The position numbers were made by a program, and so were the translations under genes. Positions 35,221 through 51,096 of a stretch of DNA of 55,345 nt are shown one piece after another. The stretch's first letter is position 1. Each line of letters begins with the position of its first letter. The stretch spans positions 1 to 55,345 of the IMG/VR virus record IMGVR_UViG_3300036816_000012, one strand, 5' to 3'. The DNA is from a virus. A model generated the notes under the pieces. The model had not been told where the DNA came from, ran no database searches, and saw only the letters and a list, made by a program, of their open reading frames with translations.

Positions 35221-35497
35221 TACTTTTGCTTTGTATTTTTGCATTGGCACTATTTACTCCGCCTATACACTTTGGCAGATGCACAGTTTAAGCGAAGAGT
35301 TAGAAGAGACAGAGATTGAAGACGAAGAGGATTACCAAATGCGTTCGGAATTAATAAAAAACGTGGATGAAATGACCCGAATATTAAAAACACCTACAAA
35401 TGTAATTATCGCAATGTTCTTCTTTATAGCTCTATTATGGCCATACATCTTGTACTTGGATATTCGATCATATTTCAGGAAGGACGATGAGGAATGA
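35204..35497 (+). CDS. Membrane protein (97 aa)
   Basis: ATG follows GAGGAGG. It has two TM segments flanking an acidic loop. Confidence 0.5.
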
Positions 35498-36309
35498 AAA
35501 ACTATCTAGAACTACTACAAGACATATTAGACAACGGAATAGCTAAGGGAGATCGAACCGGCACAGGGACGTTATCGGTATTTGGAAGGCAGCTAAGATT
35601 CGATTTATCCGAAGGTTTCCCTCTTATAACAACGAAGAAGATACACCTTCCGTCAGTGGTTCATGAGTTGCTGTGGTTTGTTAGTGGCAGCACCAATATC
35701 AAATACCTGCAGGATAATAACATAAAAATCTGGGATGACTGGAGCGACGAATACGGAGAACTAGGCCCAATATATAGTAAGCAATGGCGAGAGTGGGAAT
35801 CTCCTCATGTTGTGAATGACTTCCCGGCTGTAATTCAAATCGATCAGTTACATGACGTGATCGAACAAATCAAATTAGACCCACATAGTCGCCGTCATTT
35901 AGTATCAGCTTGGAACCCAGGTGAACTTCATAAGATGGCATTGCCACCATGTCACTACTCGTATCAATTTTACGTTGAAGGAAACAAACTGAGCTGCATC
36001 TTTAATATGCGATCCACCGATGTTTTCCTTGGGCTCCCGTTTAATATTGCAAGCTATGCCCTATTAACCCACATGATAGCTCAACAATGTGATTTAGAGG
36101 TCGGAGAATTGGTCTACAGCGGTGCTGATGTCCATATCTACTCGAACCACATAGAGCAGGTCAAAGAGCAACTGACACGCGAACCATATCCACTCCCACA
36201 GTTACACATCAAACGCAAGCCTGAGAGCATCGACGACTACGTATACGAGGACTTTGAGTTTATCGGGTACAAACATCACCCAGCAATCAAAGCGCCTGTA
36301 TCGGTGTAA
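35494..36309 (+). CDS. thyA: Thymidylate synthase ThyA
   Basis: It carries '[13 protein letters not shown]' and '[13 protein letters not shown]' (catalytic Cys). Confidence 0.95.
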
Positions 36310-36540: not shown

Positions 36541-36918
36541 ATGGGGGCGATCAGTCAGATGGAGTTATTTCCTAAAGCTACAAAGTCGGATTATGATTCT
36601 GCCAGAAGCATGCTAAACCGATATATTCGGATGCGGAAGACTGCTGAAGCCCTGCACGACCGGGTTAACCTGACAGAAAAAGAATTCCAGGTGAAAACGG
36701 AGTATCAACAAAAAGCAGATGCGGTTGAAATGGCAGTGAATTTAATTATGGATGATGGCGTAAAAAAAGTGATGCATTACCGCTTCATACGTGGATTACC
36801 ACGATGGGGCACCGTAAATAAGTTTCACAATATTACAGATCGATCAGTTGACAGGAGAATTGTTCGTGGAGTAGAATCCGTTGCAGAAACCTTGAAACTG
36901 ATCGGGATGATAGAGTGA
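36541..36918 (+). CDS. ArpU-family late transcriptional regulator (putative)
   Basis: The 125-aa product has sigma-region-4-like C-terminal 'NITDRSVDRRIVRGVESVAETL'. It is the last early gene before the packaging side. Confidence 0.5.
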   Translation: MGAISQMELFPKATKSDYDSARSMLNRYIRMRKTAEALHDRVNLTEKEFQVKTEYQQKADAVEMAVNLIMDDGVKKVMHYRFIRGLPRWGTVNKFHNITDRSVDRRIVRGVESVAETLKLIGMIE

Positions 36919-37751
36919 AATTCGCGTCTGTACCACGTCTGTAGTGGGTCGGCACAGTGTCTGTGGTTTGGATTTAAAGTAGGGACATAGGGTTAAACAC
37001 CCGGTTGTCCCTGCTCATCCGAACATAGCAGGACTCGTCCACACTAAAAGGTATCCGCTTTGAACACAGGGGTAATGGAGCGCTAGTCGCGGTGGTTTGG
37101 AAGCGGGGTCGGCGGGTAAGATCACCGCTATTATAATATGGTCTTTTGGAGCAGATAGGTTCGATTCCTATCAAGGCCTTTAACACATAACTTTTTTCAG
37201 CCGCTGTAAAAGGCGGCCCTCCGAAGGTGAAAAGCGCATTAGCGCATCACATACGCCTGCCGGGGCACATACCGGACACATGCATATATGTGGACAAAGA
37301 AAATATGCCTCCGTGACGGAATCCAGGTCGACCGTCCGGAGTAATATGGATCTGGAGCCTGTTCGCAACTGTTTGAGGATTACGCTCAGTCGCGTGGTTT
37401 GAGGTTGTGAAGGGGCAAAGGGGAATACAGGGTTGGCTTAAAAGCCTCGGGCCTGTACGGATGGATGACATGGGGTTAGGCCATCAACTTTAAACGATCG
37501 CCTGAATAGCTTTAGGAGGCTTTAGCGAAATGGCGGTTATCATGATGTGGTGGCGAAAGATAGACGCAGGCCGATGGGCCGGAGAGTACCTAACCCATGT
37601 GCAAGTACCGTCACTCAGAAGGTCGGGAAAAGATAGGGGAAATCGTGCGAGAGTGGAAGTCCTCGCCCACATCACAAATTAAGAAATACGCCAATATTTA
37701 ATAAAGGTAGTGAGCAAGAGAGTGACGGTTAAACGCCGTTGCTCTTTTTTT
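36919..37751 (+). ncRNA. Candidate large structured non-coding RNA (~0.8 kb), class unknown
   Basis: There is no plus-strand ORF of 60 aa or more, and G+C is visibly higher than in the neighbours. The block has many local hairpins, a T-arm-like hairpin gataGGTTCGATTCCtatc, and internal repeats of agtcgcg(g)tggtttg. It ends in a terminator (37712-37751, T7). Confidence 0.45.
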
Positions 37752-37832
37752 GTGTTTTAAATTTCATTCCCTGCAGATGAACGAAATGATGATCAAACCA
37801 TAACGAGATAATGCTCGAAATGGTTATTTTAG

Positions 37833-37905
37833 ATTCCCTTAACTCAGAGGTAAGAGTAGGCGTCTTATATGCGCTCGGTCGTTGGTTCGAATCCAACAGG
37901 GAACA
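37833..37905 (+). tRNA. tRNA, anticodon UAU (Ile-type, reads AUA); no encoded CCA
   Basis: Hand-folded cloverleaf. The acceptor stem is attccct/agggaac with an A1-C72 mismatch. The D stem is actc/gagt with GG in the loop. The anticodon stem is ggcgt/gcgct (2 G-U pairs) with loop cTTATAt. The variable loop is 5 nt. The T arm is gttgg-ttcgaat-ccaac. Confidence 0.7.
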
Positions 37906-37957
37906 TACACAACAAGACATGACAGTGAGGTGGATAAAACATAAGGAGTGATAGAGA

Positions 37958-38605
37958 GTGTATGTACAGGGACACCCGGAAGGGGAAGCAGTAAGAATAA
38001 CCAGTGACTCTAAGGATCCATTAGTAATTGCTTTAGCTGAGGCGTTGAAGCTGGTAGGTGTTGATATCCAGGGTATTAGTCTGATCAACCCGGATGAATT
38101 CTTGAACGTCAAAATCGTTGGCGGTTCTACAGGCGGCGGAACTGTCACAGAGACAGACCCGGTGGACATTATCGATCTTTTGCCTAGTACAGCGCTGAGA
38201 GACAACGCATCAAAAACGGTAGCATTGCCCGATCTAAAGAGATACAAAAGGTATGTTATCCAGGTTTCCAACTACTGCGACCAAGATATTAAAGTGGTTC
38301 CGTGGAATACGTGCCCGGCTGTCCTCGAAGACAACTCAGTTGGTATTTTCTCAACTACAGCGGTCACCGACGATAGTTACAGTTGGGTAGTCCCTAAAAA
38401 AGACGCCAACACGAGCGGATTGTTTTACCTCAACATTCTGGAACCTAAATCAAACGGAGCTGGAACGAAGAAGGTGAAGGCATATGAACGGTTGTTTGAT
38501 AGTGTATACAGTATCTCAGGCACAACTATGATGCTTGCATACAAAGCTGTCGCTGCGCCTACTGGTGGTAACCTGACAATCAGGTTCATTGGATTCAAAC
38601 GTTAG
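37958..38605 (+). CDS. Hypothetical protein (215 aa)
   Basis: GTG lies 9 nt after AAGGAG. It is the first gene after the tRNA and has no recognisable motif. Confidence 0.6.
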   Translation: MYVQGHPEGEAVRITSDSKDPLVIALAEALKLVGVDIQGISLINPDEFLNVKIVGGSTGGGTVTETDPVDIIDLLPSTALRDNASKTVALPDLKRYKRYVIQVSNYCDQDIKVVPWNTCPAVLEDNSVGIFSTTAVTDDSYSWVVPKKDANTSGLFYLNILEPKSNGAGTKKVKAYERLFDSVYSISGTTMMLAYKAVAAPTGGNLTIRFIGFKR

Positions 38606-38616
38606 GTGGTGCTGAA

Positions 38617-40896
38617 ATGAGGGACTTAACCCCAAAGCGGTCACTGAAACCATTACGAAATTTAAAGCCTGGTCGGAATTTAAACTGGGATTTCAAAATT
38701 AAACGTTCTGACCCGAATTATCGGGAGACAGGCACATGGCTCTCCAGTTCATTAACGGGATTCGAAGGTGATTCGACTGTTTATTCCGCTACTGCTGGTG
38801 ATAAAGCCGAATGGAGCAGGTACGCCAGCAGGACGGGAAACTACAATGTGTATGTCTGGTATCCACTTGGACCAAGCACTGAGCAGGCTGAGTATGTTGT
38901 CACATCGTTGGGTGGTACATGGCAGCGATATATAGATCAAACCAAGAACACGGGCAAATGGGTTAAGATTGCCACGATCAGTGCGGTAGCTGGTACGGTC
39001 ATGTCGGTTACTCTAAACGTTCTCAAGGGCAACACGAGATCTGGGCAGGTTAGGTTTGAATATACAGAAGACAAGGCTGACCCTCTCGGTTCCAGTGTTA
39101 TTGATACAGAGACAATCGGAATTTTCTTGAATCAATCAGGGTTTGATACTTTGAAATCAAAACGGGCTACCATTACGAATGTACCGGATGGGACAACATT
39201 CGATGTCAAAGCCAAAGGGGATGACAAAGTTGTATTCAGCGGCAAAGTGAAAGGGCAAATTGCTGATTTTACATCGTTCCAGACACCTGGTGAATATTAC
39301 ATTGAATGCCCTGGTAAGAAATATCCTTTCACCTTCAGGATTGAGAAGTATTGGACACAGCGGGTCTCGGTTGGCCCTGCACTCCGGTTTATGGATCAGT
39401 CACGCAGTGATGTATTCTTGACCGGAGCAAACGGTGTTGCGTGGCGTGATAGTCATCAGTTCAGTTTTGAGCTAGAGAGTTTGACGCAGCAGTACCAAGC
39501 TAATCCGAGCTTATATGACCGAATGCCAATGGGTATCAGCAATTTGGCTACATGCCAGTACTCGGAACTGAGAACACAGACCGAGCCCGATATCATTTGG
39601 CTTATGAAATTCGCTGTGCTGAGATACTGGGACCTTTGGAAGAACCAAGGCAAAAAGCATCATGCTCTGATCAAGGCCCAGCTCCCGTACTTCTTACATC
39701 TTTATCCGGATATTAAGCAGTATGTGAGTGAAGAGTTTTACACCAAGATTCGGGATTTTGCCATTGCTGTATGGGCTGAACCTGAATCGAATTATCATTG
39801 GTATGAAACTGCAGCATTCCACACGCTGACTACTAACAACAACTTGCTGGAAGTACAGCCGAACATTGGTGGGATCAAGGGTGAAAAGCCTCCGGGTTAT
39901 GCAATCCGACCCAACTTGCTAATGTATGAGGTTTGCAAACGTGATGGTATAGCTGACTACATGAAGTATCAGACAGCTGCGGTGGAAAATGCGAAATGGC
40001 TGGTTAACTCGGTTAATTTGGATGATCCGGCGATGACAAAGGGCCAGCGAATGAGCGAGTATGTCACCGTTCAAGGGCTGGCTTTTATGTTGGAACAGTA
40101 TCCATCACTTGCTCCGAAAGGAACATTGGAAAAAATCAATCGCTGGGTTGATGTCATGATTGCACGCTCGAATAACCTTTGGGATTTGCGGAAATACGCC
40201 GACCCTAAAGATGGAACTGGTATCGGGCTTGATCAATGGACAGGTGGGTTGATCCAATACAATGAACCAGGCAATTTGACGGGATTCCTATCCATAGCCT
40301 ATGCGGCTGCCCGAGTAATCACTGATCCAGCCAAGAAAGCACGGATCAAAGAAATCGGTATTGCACAACTGGATAATGCCTTTGGTCGAAATCCATTCAA
40401 CCGACATTTCAGCTATGACGGACCGAGAGAAATTGAGGGCGTCGATCAGGGATGGCCAACATTTTACGTCGGCGGCGCTGGTGTGCTTCAAGACGTTGTT
40501 GGTGTAATTGATGGATCTCCAAAGGAATCAGCCTACCCATTTAACCCCAAAGCTCCAGCAGGATATACAGAGGGTTGGGTTGCGTTTAACACAGCGTGGA
40601 ATTCATCCCTTGCATACCATGCTGCAGATGACACTGAGATCAGTGCCACACGCTCAGGAACAACGATTACGGTTGTTTTGAGAGCTGCCCTCAACTTGGA
40701 CAGCACCAAGGTGGAAACGGGGCAGGTGAATGTCCTAACCAGTGCAGGCGCAGCTTCTAAACTGACTGTGACTGAGAACAGCACTGATGATTACCTGTTC
40801 AGTGGAGCATTGACAGTACCAGCAGGCGTATCGTGGGTTGAATTCTCGTATGGTTACGGGTTGTTCAGAAAGAAAGTACGAGTCACAACAGGGTAA
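38617..40896 (+). CDS. Multidomain putative glycan-active enzyme: golvesin-C-like domain + CelD_N-like Ig domain + (alpha/alpha)6 GH9-like domain + C-terminal Ig-like domain
   Basis: 'GTWLSSSLTGFEGDSTVYSA..AGDKAEW...GNYNVYVWYP...AEYVV...GKWVKIA...GQVRF' is a golvesin-like pattern. 'FLNQSGFDTLKSKRATI...DFTSFQTPGEYYIE..GKKYPFTFRI' is a GH9 N-terminal Ig-like pattern. 'ALRFMDQSRS' matches the start of a GH9 catalytic domain. The canonical DAGD motif is not seen. Confidence 0.5.
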   Translation: MRDLTPKRSLKPLRNLKPGRNLNWDFKIKRSDPNYRETGTWLSSSLTGFEGDSTVYSATAGDKAEWSRYASRTGNYNVYVWYPLGPSTEQAEYVVTSLGGTWQRYIDQTKNTGKWVKIATISAVAGTVMSVTLNVLKGNTRSGQVRFEYTEDKADPLGSSVIDTETIGIFLNQSGFDTLKSKRATITNVPDGTTFDVKAKGDDKVVFSGKVKGQIADFTSFQTPGEYYIECPGKKYPFTFRIEKYWTQRVSVGPALRFMDQSRSDVFLTGANGVAWRDSHQFSFELESLTQQYQANPSLYDRMPMGISNLATCQYSELRTQTEPDIIWLMKFAVLRYWDLWKNQGKKHHALIKAQLPYFLHLYPDIKQYVSEEFYTKIRDFAIAVWAEPESNYHWYETAAFHTLTTNNNLLEVQPNIGGIKGEKPPGYAIRPNLLMYEVCKRDGIADYMKYQTAAVENAKWLVNSVNLDDPAMTKGQRMSEYVTVQGLAFMLEQYPSLAPKGTLEKINRWVDVMIARSNNLWDLRKYADPKDGTGIGLDQWTGGLIQYNEPGNLTGFLSIAYAAARVITDPAKKARIKEIGIAQLDNAFGRNPFNRHFSYDGPREIEGVDQGWPTFYVGGAGVLQDVVGVIDGSPKESAYPFNPKAPAGYTEGWVAFNTAWNSSLAYHAADDTEISATRSGTTITVVLRAALNLDSTKVETGQVNVLTSAGAASKLTVTENSTDDYLFSGALTVPAGVSWVEFSYGYGLFRKKVRVTTG

Positions 40897-41034
40897 ATCC
40901 ATTGCCTGAAAAGCCGCAGGAGGTGACGGCGAAGTAGGGCAGACCCTTTGCAAGTTTGGAAATTAACGGAACTTGAATTGGGAAAATGCAGTATACTCTA
41001 TTATGAGAATAAATCATAAAGAGGTGTGAAGTTT

Positions 41035-41289
41035 ATGGAAACAGCGGCAAAAAAAGTTGAGTGTCCGAAATGTGGATCGGTAAGACAAGAACGATTGACA
41101 AAAACATTTTTCTTTCTGTTTTTATTAGGCGGTGGTAGTTGCTTGATATGGCTAGGGTTGATATTATGGCCTGCTCTTATTGCTGGTGGAGCAATGATAT
41201 TGTTATCTTTTGCAACACCTGCGTTCCCGAAGTCTTATAAGTGTTTGGATTGCAATAGTGGTTGGACAGAAAAACAGGAATGGCTTTAA
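41035..41289 (+). CDS. Membrane zinc-ribbon protein (84 aa)
   Basis: 'CPKCGS' ... 2 TM ... 'CLDCNS'. ATG lies 8 nt after GAGGTG. Confidence 0.55.
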   Translation: METAAKKVECPKCGSVRQERLTKTFFFLFLLGGGSCLIWLGLILWPALIAGGAMILLSFATPAFPKSYKCLDCNSGWTEKQEWL

Positions 41290-41372
41290 TGATGGATATG
41301 CATACATAGTGCCTAATGTGGAGAATATTTTATACAATTTAAAATGAATTAATGAGGGAGCGGTGATCTACT

Positions 41373-41651
41373 ATGTTAAGCAAATGCGATCATTGTCAGC
41401 ATGAGTTTCAGGTGGATGGCTTTCCCATAGAGGACATGCCGGATGGAGTAGAAAAGACATACTTCGAGTGCCCACATTGCAAGCGTGAGTACGTTGCTTT
41501 CTACACAGATCCAGAAATTAGGGAGTTACAAGCTAAAATCAGAAATACAGGGTGGAATGACGAGGAAGCAAACACACTGCTGAAAATGGTTGAGGACAAC
41601 AAACGCTTGATGAATGAACTTCGTAAACGAATGGAAATGCAAGGCGAGTAG
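41373..41651 (+). CDS. Zinc-ribbon protein (92 aa)
   Basis: It has 'CDHCQHE' ... 'CPHCKRE' and a helical C-terminus. Confidence 0.55.
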   Translation: MLSKCDHCQHEFQVDGFPIEDMPDGVEKTYFECPHCKREYVAFYTDPEIRELQAKIRNTGWNDEEANTLLKMVEDNKRLMNELRKRMEMQGE

Positions 41652-41679
41652 ATAGTATACAAGTCCAAACAAACAAACC

Positions 41680-41708
41680 AAAGCCATGCTTACATAGGTG
41701 GCTTTTTG
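41680..41708 (+). terminator. Rho-independent terminator
   Basis: The stem aaagcca/tggcttt is followed by a T-run. Confidence 0.65.
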
Positions 41709-41740
41709 TCATGCCAATAAACAAAACGGAGGGACTCATA

Positions 41741-41989
41741 ATGGTGATTAAGAAGACGGTAGCACCACCACCGACCGGAGGGAGCTCAGTGAACAAACCT
41801 TGTAGACCTGTTCAGGAAGGCATGACAACAGTTGTTATCAACCTTAACCTCATGAGCACGCAGAACATAGGAGAAGCAGTAAGGGAAGCTGAATCAGCCG
41901 TAGATTGGGATGTAAGTAAGACGGTTGTGATCAATGTGAATGTGCTTAACGATGGTTATGTTGAAAATGATGTGGTTGACTATGGATAA
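41741..41989 (+). CDS. Hypothetical protein (82 aa) with internal 'TVVINxNxx' repeat
   Basis: ATG lies 7 nt after GGAGGG. The repeats are 'TTVVINLNLM' and 'KTVVINVNVL'. Confidence 0.5.
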   Translation: MVIKKTVAPPPTGGSSVNKPCRPVQEGMTTVVINLNLMSTQNIGEAVREAESAVDWDVSKTVVINVNVLNDGYVENDVVDYG

Positions 41990-42015
41990 GTGTGAGGTGA
42001 TGACGTTTGGCAAGG

Positions 42016-42168
42016 ATGAGAATAGCCTACTCCATTAAGATCATAGCCGGGATGTTGTACGGAATCAGTGCTTTGATGTTAATCAACCATCTAACTCTGT
42101 CATCAATCTCGATATGTGTATTGGGCATGTTGATACACGATATAGCTAATGAGGTACAGGAGGGATGA
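42016..42168 (+). CDS. Small membrane protein (50 aa, 2 TM)
   Basis: The ORF is below the track cutoff. The product is 'MRIAYSIKIIAGMLYGISALMLINHLTLSSISICVLGMLIHDIANEVQEG'. Confidence 0.4.
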   Translation: MRIAYSIKIIAGMLYGISALMLINHLTLSSISICVLGMLIHDIANEVQEG

Positions 42169-42170
42169 AG

Positions 42171-42413
42171 ATGATCAAACCAATCGCTCAACAACAGAAC
42201 AATGAAAATGGGTTAACACCACCAGGTACGATACGAGATGAGTTGTATCTTGTCGATGAACTATCTGCATATCTAGCAGCCAAATATGACATCGAACGTG
42301 TAAGAGCTATGGTAGTAAAACCGCATGGGCTCACAACATGGACTAGACTGGCTCATAGTATTGGACTACCAATGACTGGAGGCGATACCAATGATCAGAC
42401 AGGAGAAGCGTAA
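42171..42413 (+). CDS. Hypothetical protein (80 aa)
   Basis: ATG lies 8 nt after AGGAGG (the track start 42165 is 2 nt after the RBS). Confidence 0.5.
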   Translation: MIKPIAQQQNNENGLTPPGTIRDELYLVDELSAYLAAKYDIERVRAMVVKPHGLTTWTRLAHSIGLPMTGGDTNDQTGEA

Positions 42414-51068: not shown

Positions 51069-51096
51069 GGGAGAGGGATAACCTCTCTCTTTTTTT
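51069..51096 (+). terminator. Rho-independent terminator inside the tail operon
   Basis: The stem gggagagg/cctctctc (with one G-U pair) is followed by a T7 run. Confidence 0.7.

Follow-up and report, generated by a model that had tools for sequence, protein, structure and literature searches.

A handful of RNA-based processive antiterminators are named in the cited sections of three sources, namely put, EAR, conAn2, canT, and RARE (PMC8191782, PMC11658703, PMC8632103). EAR was shown experimentally to be a processive antiterminator (Irnov & Winkler 2010, as reported in the cited sections of PMC7858274, PMC8191782, PMC11658703, and PMC2864571), and its descriptions in the cited sections of PMC8191782, PMC11658703, and PMC8632103 are confined to eps/cps operons of Bacilli. 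Late genes of Gram-positive phages are the setting of a second relevant system, the Ltr proteins; according to the cited section of PMC3753634, each recognizes direct repeats of 7 nt located immediately distal to the gene that encodes it.

Here we analyze a locus in which elements resembling both systems lie side by side. The window covers positions 1–55,345 of the IMG/VR virus record IMGVR_UViG_3300036816_000012, and the host family is the Paenibacillaceae, within the Bacillales. The block of interest (36919–37751) is flanked by the gene of a phage activator on one side and by the late genes (HNH, terminase, portal) on the other. Coordinates refer to the window; genes, RNA elements, the terminator, and the promoter are on the plus strand, and the DNA boxes are given without strand. 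We read the block, with a probability of roughly 60%, as the region that controls the late operon of a Paenibacillus prophage, together with the leader of that operon, and not as a single 0.8-kb RNA. The explanation as a whole would combine an activator-driven late promoter, an EAR-class antiterminator leader, and a 5′ hairpin (P1) serving as an insulator.

The initial annotation had singled out this block as ORF-free, G+C-rich, dense in hairpins, and next to a tRNA, and these descriptions are borne out; the block also lies where the late genes begin. On the plus strand, the largest ORFs between 36918 and 37958 have 50, 46, and 40 aa, and none reaches 60 aa. The minus-strand ORFs of the block, dismissed earlier as junk, are 61–74 aa long, and seven ORFs of the block (minus-strand and short plus-strand) had no significant match in Pfam or PHROG. 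The block has a G+C content of 0.498, the window one of 0.437; among 833-nt windows the block thus ranks at the 97.8th percentile, and the value rises to 0.55 at 37081–37140. The plus strand folds at −299 kcal/mol, compared with −265 ± 6 for shuffles (z = −5.5), and the minus strand reaches z = −3.0; single-sequence folds of sub-modules gave z values of only −0.75 to −2.5, which are uninformative alone. All five hairpins quoted earlier, and a T-arm at 37154–37172, were recovered in place. An internally repeated motif had also been described, and its three copies exist (36962, 37085, and 37388), but the repetition is meaningful only in part. At 36962 the motif coincides with the fourth activator box and its spacer. 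The other two copies are 18/20 identical with two indels, a score reached by 2 of 500 shuffles.

Conservation among relatives is restricted to the first ∼210–270 nt of the block (36919 to ∼37190). The remaining ∼560 nt form a lineage-specific mosaic, present or absent blockwise even among close relatives: the near-identical relative L028 lacks ∼300 nt of this non-conserved part, and in L026 an ORF is inserted within it. The earlier proposal of a large structured RNA thus stands in so far as the plus strand encodes structured RNA, but not as one unit. A search of phage genomes, suggested at that time, gave no real match when the block and three family members were compared by blastn with 50,697 cultured-phage records, and megablast of 20 kb matched solely the terminase gene of Paenibacillus larvae phages. 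Rfam covariance models, likewise suggested as a means of finding a large-RNA class, matched only the tRNA-Ile in the 55 kb at the gathering threshold, and searches at E ≤ 10 (1.3 kb, 36700–38000; 241 nt) returned no GOLLD, ROOL, OLE, intron, tmRNA, RNase P, Y RNA, or epsC. Membership in, or close analogy to, GOLLD and ROOL, as had been envisaged, is thus left without an Rfam match at either threshold. A single folded particle of ∼0.8 kb, one large ornate RNA of the GOLLD/ROOL type, would suit an ORF-free, G+C-rich, stably folding block in a prophage with an adjoining tRNA and tRNA-like pieces inside, as reported for GOLLD. It is nevertheless very unlikely, given the missing large-RNA match, the short conserved unit followed by blockwise variable sequence that tolerates an ORF in one relative, and a known ∼120-nt class that accounts for the conserved part.

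That conserved part consists of four elements: direct-repeat boxes, a −10-like hexamer, an RNA of ∼150 nt with covarying helices, and a covarying tRNA-like minihelix. Some 50 (pro)phage loci of Paenibacillaceae have it again, in each case downstream from the same small gene. A covariance model of the RNA (R1), to which the window copy scores 173 bits, found it in 38 loci, and among independently fetched loci of activator homologues it lies downstream in 35 of 46, always on the same strand.

The gene preceding the block (36541–36918, 125 aa) is a putative Ltr-like late activator with a predicted sigma-70 region-4-like C-terminal helix-turn-helix domain. Its product is assigned to PHROG 21810, and its homologues lie immediately 5′ of the conserved RNA in most loci. 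The label “ArpU-like” given to it previously found no support among the models of Pfam and NCBIfam, including the ArpU, RinA, sigma70_r4, and DUF1492 models, none of which matched, and a PDB-sequence profile search with the activator alignment produced nothing meaningful. The AlphaFold2 model (pLDDT 90) is closest to sigma-factor region 4: the best Foldseek matches, 3hug and 2h27, have a probability of ∼1 and TM-scores to target of 0.67–0.77, with weak E-values (∼0.1). As part of the whole explanation, we consider the protein, on this predicted fold, to be probably a sigma-region-4-like protein of the Ltr type. The activator gene also contains a near-consensus sigma-A promoter, whose conservation at the DNA level is absent outside close relatives; it was left out of the model.

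Four direct-repeat boxes with an 11-bp period (36926–36965) follow, the first beginning 8 nt past the activator stop codon: GTCTGTA (box 1, 36926–36932), GTCTGTA (box 2, 36937–36943), GTCGGCA (box 3, 36948–36954), and GTCTGTG (box 4, 36959–36965). Boxes and −10-like hexamer keep a strict register in all family members, and the sequence of the boxes tracks the activator subfamily (GTCTGT, GGGGGTA, GAGACTA, GACGGTA, or GGCGC); at one locus, L043, the hexamer is present and the boxes are absent. From this pattern we infer that the boxes are binding sites of the activator protein. The spacing from boxes to hexamer misfits a standard −35/−10 promoter.

The hexamer itself, TAAAGT at 36975–36980 in the window, occurs among the listed family members as TAAAGT, TACAGT, TATAGT, or TAAACT, with T1, A2, A4, and T6 invariant, and the bases adjoining it covary with the RNA that follows. 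Seven bases past the hexamer most members have an A, with C or T before it; in three members a one-base insertion shifts this A to the eighth base. Late transcription would accordingly start at about A36987. At two loci (L035 and L042) a terminator lies immediately 5′ of the boxes, and a promoter must therefore fall in this stretch.

Repeats of this kind could also be read as DNA signals. Phased direct repeats are typical of sites for terminase small subunits or initiators, and the region lies 5′ of packaging genes, so that the block might hold a pac/cos site, an origin, or a promoter only, or else a decayed protein gene, with any RNA structure incidental. This we find scarcely credible. Compensatory base changes specific to the plus strand occur in nine helices, the boxes follow the activator gene whereas terS is 6 kb away in the window, and the ORFs of the block, as noted, resemble no known protein family in Pfam or PHROG. 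The repeats are moreover accounted for by the Ltr literature (cited section of PMC3753634), and a pac/cos or iteron reading was dropped in favor of the fit between activator and boxes, for which the covariation of box and subfamily speaks as well.

Under the preferred reading of a late-operon control region and leader, the RNA that begins at this promoter is the central component, and several lines of comparison place it near EAR. Thirteen relatives pass the Rfam model RF01735 (epsC) at 50–97 bits (gathering score 42) over the full 117-position model, and they occupy the same genomic position as the window copy. One of them, L052, has an activator 75% identical to that of the window and the identical box type. 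The window copy itself had no RF01735 match, whether the gathering threshold or E ≤ 10 was applied. A second covariance model (R2), built from 11 relatives outside the clade of the window, 7 of them RF01735-positive, has its sole match in the 55-kb window at 36976–37131 (75 bits, E = 1e−18). The conserved RNA probably belongs, as part of the same overall explanation, with the ∼120-nt epsC/EAR class, the window copy being a divergent variant.

In the EAR-like core (37007–37131), hairpin P2 and a long-range helix are combined with a central domain, which is divergent, and with a 3′ hairpin. P2 pairs 37007–37014 with 37028–37034 (stem GUCCCUGC/GCAGGAC) and covaries in relatives; its loop in the window, UCAUCCGAACAUA, lacks the conserved ACCnUUAUC motif. 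The long-range helix joins CUCGUCCACACU (37034–37045) to 37094–37107 and encloses a domain whose “type B” sequence is common to L013, L022, L027, and L020 and is devoid of the EAR motifs. The 3′ hairpin, GGCGG-GUAAGAUCA-CCGCU (37111–37129), has a loop of the UUAAGAU type, and all five of its stem pairs covary. Because the P2 loop lacks the motif and the central domain differs, the function of the window copy may have been lost or changed.

The covariation analysis, another check that had been proposed at the outset, turned out clearly positive. In the RNA alignment 31 pairs show double changes, and 94.8% of cells are paired, compared with 82% in shuffles and ∼43% when pairing partners were slid.

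Upstream of the core lies P1, an “anti-EAR” hairpin (36978–37015) whose outer stem pairs AGUAGGGACA (36978–36987) with UGUCCCUGCU (37006–37015) around an inner hairpin (36990–37002) with a covarying stem. P1 and P2 are mutually exclusive, since the P2 5′ strand is contained in the 3′ strand of P1, and both the P1 outer stem and P2 are kept in L052, L004, L005, L087, and L083 despite different sequences, which for the outer stem are wholly different. The 5′ strand of P1 overlaps the predicted promoter. Read-through RNA forms P1 in 20 of 20 folds (10 + 10 members) at −22 to −42 kcal/mol, and RNA beginning at the predicted start forms the 5′ hairpin, with P2 also present in 19 of 20; the exception is L052, whose minimum-energy fold pairs GGUGU with GCACC. 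Since P1 competes with the first EAR hairpin and has its 5′ strand in the promoter, this arrangement suggests that termination resistance is limited to polymerase initiated at the late promoter.

We propose the following mechanism. The activator would bind the four phased boxes and turn on the promoter with the −10 element TAAAGT, giving a transcript that consists of a short 5′ hairpin followed by the EAR-class RNA up to ∼37131. By analogy with the eps-associated RNA of B. subtilis, this RNA would render its polymerase resistant to terminators, so that it passes the strong intrinsic terminator at 37716–37755 and later ones and transcribes the tRNA-Ile, the accessory genes inserted there, and the genes for packaging and structure. 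Transcripts reading through from the activator gene would carry the 5′ strand of P1, which would sequester P2; the polymerases making them would therefore remain unmodified and be halted at the terminator, and the late genes would thus be expressed only by way of transcripts begun at the activated promoter. Were transcription to start upstream of P1, the insulator model would fail.

The terminator, whose 14-bp stem and T run occupy 37716–37748 (T7 in the run), stands between the leader and the tRNA-Ile and late genes. Its sequence is shared with L028, L026, and L014. A terminator occurs no more than 900 nt from the promoter in at least 24 of 35 family loci, and four more were identified by eye; near the RNA of some members no terminator is obvious. 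In the window, a second terminator of the late region lies at 51069. The first gene past the leader terminator is a tRNA-Ile with anticodon TAT (37833–37905; ARAGORN, and 57 bits with the Rfam tRNA model), so that the earlier description of a T-run terminator followed by a genuine tRNA was accurate.

A P1/P2 switch ahead of a terminator is also what might be expected of a riboswitch or attenuator, that is, a leader that senses a ligand or factor and governs the nearest terminator only. The two helices are mutually exclusive and covary, a terminator follows in most loci, and the epsC motif was initially a riboswitch candidate (cited section of PMC2864571). Against this, the RNA and the terminator may be as close as ∼30 nt or >600 nt apart, and what lies between them varies too, be it unrelated modules, tRNA-like elements, or even an ORF; there is therefore no expression platform overlapping the conserved core. 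EAR, moreover, affects distal and heterologous terminators (cited section of PMC7858274), and the promoter-like nature of the P1 5′ strand provides an explanation that needs no factor. We regard a sensing leader as improbable.

Between the core and the terminator, the leader carries tRNA-like elements and variable modules. The first element, TLS1 (37140–37178), is a minihelix formed by an acceptor-like stem (GGUCUU/AAGGCC) and a T arm (GAUAGG-UUCGAUU-CCUAUC), with neither D arm nor anticodon arm. The tRNA-like element recognized earlier is real: both stems covary, with double changes at 5/5 pairs in one and 4/6 in the other. About half of the family members lack the minihelix, and in L034 a complete tRNA-Ile(TAT) takes its place. 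Neither ARAGORN nor the Rfam tRNA model (RF00005) calls TLS1 or the second element, TLS2, and TLS1 has no match to the Rfam Y-RNA or tRNA models. In its combination of acceptor stem and T arm, TLS1 resembles MALAT1 mascRNA, the minihelices recognized by RNase P and the CCA-adding enzyme, and the tRNA-like domains of bacterial Y RNAs. As in these tRNA-like processing signals, the element, with its canonical GGUUCGAUUCC T-loop, is located 3′ of another structured RNA.

Lineage-specific structured modules occupy 37186–37543, a segment common to L028 only, with partial pieces in L014, L035, and L026. They include hairpins at 37200–37217, 37234–37245, and 37277–37292, a short copy of the EAR 3′ motif (37382–37401), and a candidate H-type pseudoknot that pairs GACGG (37315–37319) with CCGUC (37332–37336) and UCCAGGUC (37322–37329) with GAUCUGGA (37349–37356). 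Its stems show compensatory changes in L014 and L035, amounting to three sequences, too few for a statistical test, and a pattern scan returned the window, L014, L028, and chance coding matches only.

TLS2 (37544–37674) is a pseudo-tRNA, delineated in alignment with L026, L015, and L014. It has an acceptor stem (GAUGUGG/CCACAUC; discriminator base A), a D arm of class-II type (GUGGCGAAAGAUAGACGC), and a T-loop-like arm; a non-canonical insert of ∼75 nt replaces the anticodon and variable arms, leaving no canonical anticodon arm. The element is apparently tRNA-Leu-like. A tmRNA or degenerate tRNA was discarded as an interpretation of TLS1 and TLS2, given the negative ARAGORN result and the fact that each element holds both of its acceptor strands within one compact unit. 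TLS1 and TLS2 are probably processing signals of the RNase P/Z type or stabilizing signals. A processing site at TLS1, directly after an antiterminator RNA, sits awkwardly with the model, and the RNA of HK022 put must reportedly, as Sen et al. are said to have found in 2001, remain tethered to polymerase.

The same elements could instead mean that the main task of the leader is to supply stable small RNAs that act in trans and not in cis on RNA polymerase. The EAR-like RNA, the modules in the middle, and tRNA-like decoys would be released by cuts at the tRNA-like elements and might serve anti-defense, hijacking of tRNA enzymes, or packaging. The minihelix covaries and may be replaced by a real tRNA, the tRNA-Leu-like element and then a tRNA follow further 3′, the terminator closes the unit much as in lambda 6S RNA, and the variable modules resemble cargo. 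We consider this unlikely, as the core is homologous to a known cis-acting RNA, the minihelix is missing in about half of the members, and no target or partner protein is evident. These counterarguments are compatible with cis and trans roles together.

Returning to the late-operon control region and EAR-class leader, EAR-type RNA at phage late operons is, judged by homology, a setting beyond the eps/cps operons of the literature cited above. Dozens of natural EAR variants appear to head phage late operons; their central domains are exchanged, a 5′ hairpin competes with the first helix, and an activator-dependent promoter is predicted. This would extend the biology of the class to the timing of phage late genes, and the rich covariation set and natural domain swaps should help to locate contacts with RNA polymerase. 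The arrangement also suggests a simple route by which a phage could confine antitermination to polymerases from one promoter. The Ltr (RinA/ArpU) model, which describes how Gram-positive phages control their late genes, would gain a layer that it has lacked, with relevance to transduction and prophage induction. More tentatively, and as a possibility that we hold with distinctly less confidence, late operons of temperate Paenibacillaceae phages might use an EAR-class antiterminator licensed by the position of the transcription start, with the −10/discriminator region encoding the anti-EAR 5′ strand, polymerases arriving from early genes halted unmodified, and the leader punctuated by tRNA-like elements. 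If start-site licensing of this kind is true, EAR would be a mobile phage-borne device and not an oddity of eps operons.

Compared with known systems, the locus shares with GOLLD and ROOL a prophage setting, tRNAs adjoining or inside, and long ORF-free structured regions, but its conserved unit measures ∼210–270 nt, not 500–800 nt. With HK022 put and the lambda Q/PR′-6S RNA-tR′ system it shares, in the proposed mechanism, a cis element after a phage promoter, a nearby terminator that is ignored, and the transcription of a long late or early operon; the lambda order of promoter, short leader RNA, terminator, and late genes is the same. The put RNA has no sequence or structure similarity to the RNA of the window, and in the lambda system a protein, Q, loads at a site on the DNA, whereas an EAR-class RNA and a conventional activator are proposed here.

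The likeness to the RinA/ArpU/LtrA–C activators (Quiles-Puchalt et al. 2013, cited section) lies in a small activator gene just before the late genes, in phage-specific short repeats right past the stop codon and then a conserved intergenic region, and in a sigma-region-4-like C-terminal domain, here indicated by predicted fold. Four boxes with an 11-bp period replace the three 7-nt repeats described there, the activator matches no ArpU, RinA, or sigma70_r4 HMM, and the cited sections of the Ltr literature make no mention of a structured antiterminator RNA. With respect to EAR, the phage family differs in its position in a late operon behind a putative activator-dependent promoter instead of an eps/cps operon, in the extra P1 competing with the first helix, and in an often present 3′ tRNA-like minihelix, and the window copy differs further in its central domain and P2 loop and falls below the Rfam score. 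In the thirteen relatives that pass RF01735 the likeness extends over the whole model, with a hairpin bearing an ACCnUUAUC-type loop, a long-range helix from CUCG to G(N)GGG, two inner hairpins (GUGGG...CCUUAGACG...GUCGUC), and, at the 3′ side, a hairpin whose loop is of the UUAAGAU type; the phage RNA, like EAR, stands at the start of a long operon containing terminators.

The window is a Paenibacillus-type prophage; among cultured phages, nucleotide similarity is limited to Paenibacillus larvae phages. The block (36919–37751) follows a thymidylate synthase gene (35494–36309) and the gene for a 125-aa protein (36541–36918, plus strand; hereafter the activator, "ArpU-like" in the initial annotation), and precedes an HNH gene, the small and large terminase subunit genes and the portal gene (42.7–46.6 kb). 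Downstream of the activator gene, as far as the next real gene (37958), the largest plus-strand ORF is ≤ 50 aa, and block ORFs on both strands had no significant match in Pfam or PHROG. The block also has a G+C content of 0.498 vs 0.437 for the window (97.8th percentile), and folds 5.5 standard deviations better than shuffles on the plus strand and 3.0 on the minus strand. The block is thus non-coding and structured, as first proposed from the sequence; the hairpins, T-arm, motif copies, terminator and tRNA quoted then are all present where they were placed, and the setting (prophage, tRNA neighborhood, late transcription) was read correctly. Between the tRNA and the packaging genes lie two accessory-looking genes (37958–40896), one for a 215-aa protein without family match, the other for a 759-aa protein whose domains are Golvesin_C and CelD_N (cellulase N-terminal Ig-like), the latter gene an unusual cargo for the start of a late operon; behind them (41026–42413) are several small ORFs that look zinc-ribbon-like.

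The initial annotation had further suggested a single ~0.8 kb RNA of the GOLLD/ROOL classes. Relative loci (numbered L004 etc.; Paenibacillaceae phages and prophages) were collected through homologues of the activator and by scanning viral contigs for exact matches to a pattern from the most conserved stretch, which gave 26 loci; loosening the pattern added further ones. Across activator-homologue loci, conservation is confined to the first ~200–280 nt of the block. The ~560 nt on the 3′ side form a mosaic: the near-identical relative L028 shares 37187–37416 and then goes directly to the terminator, other pieces recur in L014, L035, L026, and L015, and L026 carries an ORF inserted within this part. 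An Rfam 15 scan of the window returned the tRNA-Ile only, as did a search of 36700–38000 at E ≤ 10. A single GOLLD/ROOL-like RNA is therefore unsupported, in its class assignment as well as in its size.

A covariance model (R1), for which nine members were used, found one copy per locus in 38 loci, with the window copy at 36976–37185 (173 bits). In the R1 alignment, 94.8% of cells were paired, compared with 82% in column shuffles and ∼43% when partners were slid, and 185 double-change cells stood against 54 in shuffles; because the alignment was fitted to the model, these covariation figures are somewhat inflated, but the margin is still large, and RNAalifold, run without such fitting, recovered the same helices. 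In the R1 alignment, 31 of 47 pairs have changed on both sides. Rfam model RF01735 (epsC) scored above its gathering threshold, over its full length, in 13 relative loci (50–97 bits, threshold 42). This is the eps-associated RNA (EAR) of the B. subtilis eps operon, which, as outlined in the published accounts, lets RNA polymerase pass distal and heterologous terminators (PMC2864571, PMC7858274, PMC8191782, PMC11658703).

The window's own copy did not match RF01735; it differs from EAR in the loop of the first EAR helix (P2) and in the central domain, with a "type B" center common to L013, L020, L022, and L027. A second model built solely from relatives outside the window's clade (R2) matched the window at 36976–37131 (75 bits, E = 1e-18) and nowhere else in it, and L052, whose activator is 75% identical to the window's and whose box type is identical, has an Rfam-positive EAR at the same place. 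On these grounds the window RNA is a divergent member of an EAR-like family, and we hold with high confidence that the conserved RNA of the block is a structured RNA homologous to those of the EAR-positive relatives.

When loci were found through the activator protein alone, 35 of 46 viral loci carried the EAR-like RNA downstream on the same strand. The 11 loci without an R2 match (L068, L069, L085, and L088–L095) have more distant activators (28–42% identity), and RF01735 was likewise absent from the nine searched (all except L092 and L094); their late leaders may contain a different element. At blastn sensitivity, the cultured-phage collection gave no match to the EAR-like RNA. In the two most divergent members a U run begins within a few bases of the last EAR hairpin (L004 4554–4580, L005 4547–4575), so that this hairpin resembles an intrinsic terminator. 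An internal repeat, CGCU(C)AGUCGC(G)GUGGUUUG, occurs at 37080–37099 and 37382–37401 (18/20 identical; score matched by 2 of 500 shuffles), so that part of the EAR-like core, the region of its 3′ strand, is found again in a downstream module; L028 and L026 also have the downstream copy.

In nearly all loci, a ∼120–145-aa protein of one family ends 35–80 nt upstream of the conserved core. The activator had no match among Pfam, NCBIfam, or PDB sequence profiles, and the best structural matches of its confident AlphaFold2 model (pLDDT 90) were sigma-factor region 4 structures (3hug and 2h27; probability ∼1, TM-score to target 0.67–0.77, E-values weak). Directly after its stop codon stand four boxes, GTCTGTA, GTCTGTA, GTCGGCA, and GTCTGTG (36926–36965), repeating every 11 bp exactly. 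In other phages, boxes of the types GGGGGTA, GAGACTA, GACGGTA, or GGCGC occupy this register, and box type follows activator subfamily. The third box (36948–36954, about −39 to −33 from the predicted start) deviates systematically, in other loci too, tending to end in CA (GTCGGCA, GTCCGCA, GTCAACA vs GTCTGTA; GGGGGCA vs GGGGGTA). In GGGGGTA-box phages (L010, L013, L020, L027, and L034) the activator ORF lacks the usual stop and enters the first two boxes (...LGVSWG*), so coding sequence and putative binding sites overlap.

A hexamer, TAAAGT, TACAGT, TATAGT, or TAAACT, stands 16 nt from where the last box starts; its positions 1, 2, 4, and 6 are invariant, the pattern of a sigma-A −10 element, and surrounding bases vary. 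The seventh base after it is, in most members, an A preceded by C or T, shifted to the eighth by a one-base insertion in three members. The first box of L035 and L042 directly follows a terminator, so these ∼70 bp must contain a promoter. We infer a late promoter with a predicted start near A36987. A near-consensus sigma-A promoter (TTGACA-18-TAGAAT, 11/12 positions; 36848–36877) also occurs within the activator gene, at its 3′ end; transcripts from it would carry the boxes and the 5′ strand of the hairpin P1 described below, and it may be fortuitous since it overlaps the conserved VDRRIVRGVES coding sequence. L043 (3350–3560, minus strand) has the RNA and a −10-like hexamer with no recognizable phased boxes, its nearest activator-like gene ending ∼750 nt upstream, and may be a differently controlled copy.

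Behind the EAR-like RNA lies a tRNA-like minihelix (TLS1, 37140–37178), which combines an acceptor-like stem with a T arm whose loop is canonical (GGUUCGAUUCC). About half of the family members have it, and both stems covary; in L034 a full tRNA-Ile(TAT) (50–122) takes this position, joined immediately to the EAR-like RNA. A second element (TLS2, 37544–37674) is tRNA-Leu-like, with ∼75 nt replacing the anticodon and variable arms and with shorter and longer versions in L014, L015, and L026. Its acceptor stem resembles that of tRNA-Leu, the discriminator is A, the D arm is of class II, and another arm is T-loop-like; the insert is non-canonical in all four loci (55–75 nt), and downstream come a terminator and then a genuine tRNA. 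Neither element was called as a tRNA. Because leucyl-tRNA synthetase ignores the anticodon, TLS2 could conceivably be charged. We suggest that both elements are putative RNase P/Z-type processing or stabilizing signals, although cleavage immediately after a cis-acting antiterminator would call for an explanation. A candidate H-type pseudoknot (37315–37356; also in L014, L028, and L035) would form from two interleaved stems, GACGG/CCGUC and UCCAGGUC/GAUCUGGA. Compensatory changes affect both stems in L014 and L035, three sequences being too small a set for a test; a pattern scan found no further copies, and no Rfam family matched it. A strong terminator (37716–37748) is common to L028, L026, and L014, and at least 24 of 35 family loci, with a few more by eye, have a terminator ≤ 900 nt from the promoter; a further strong one lies at 51069, inside the structural genes. 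The tRNA-Ile (37833–37905; anticodon TAT, reading AUA) has a non-standard first acceptor pair in the Rfam alignment and shares its anticodon with the L034 tRNA.

The Rfam epsC model starts at GGUGA, a stretch that in the phage RNAs is the 3′ strand of an extra "anti-EAR" hairpin, P1 (AGUAGGGACA at 36978–87 paired with UGUCCCUGCU at 37006–15), formed around a covarying inner hairpin. Because this strand contains the 5′ strand of P2 (in the window GUCCCUGC with GCAGGAC), P1 and P2 cannot coexist, and both are kept despite complete sequence change in L052, L004, L005, L087, and L083. The P1 5′ strand runs from the final three bases of the −10-like hexamer to the predicted start. When 10 + 10 members were folded in two versions, P1 formed with upstream sequence (−22 to −42 kcal/mol), whereas RNA from the predicted start had a small 5′ hairpin in 20/20 folds and P2 in 19/20, the minimum-energy fold of L052 having a different pairing in its place. 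The window has no terminator between the activator gene and the boxes, so polymerases on that gene must enter this region.

The simplest reading of these folds is a P1/P2 exchange in which read-through transcripts from the activator gene would fold P1, form no EAR and stop at the terminator at 37716–37748, and those from the activated late promoter would fold EAR and pass it. If the start lies upstream, the switch would be unexplained and a factor-driven switch favored. By analogy with EAR, we have moderate confidence that the EAR-like RNA confers processive antitermination on the late operon, and lower confidence in licensing by start site. In the best-supported account, the block opens with an Ltr-type late promoter; an EAR-like antiterminator leader comes next, its competitor hairpin overlapping the promoter, and behind it lie tRNA-like punctuation, lineage-specific modules, and a terminator. 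Such an arrangement lends itself to direct tests of EAR biology and of how phages insulate their late genes.

The boxes directly distal to the activator stop codon have the arrangement published for the Ltr superfamily of late activators (RinA, ArpU, LtrA-C), whose proteins bind direct repeats immediately beyond their own gene and whose remaining intergenic region is conserved between phages (PMC3753634). Compared with the EAR of the Rfam model, the phage RNAs have the additional 5′ hairpin P1. The EAR descriptions examined place it in eps/cps operons only, and we rate its occurrence in a phage late operon as a new context for the class.
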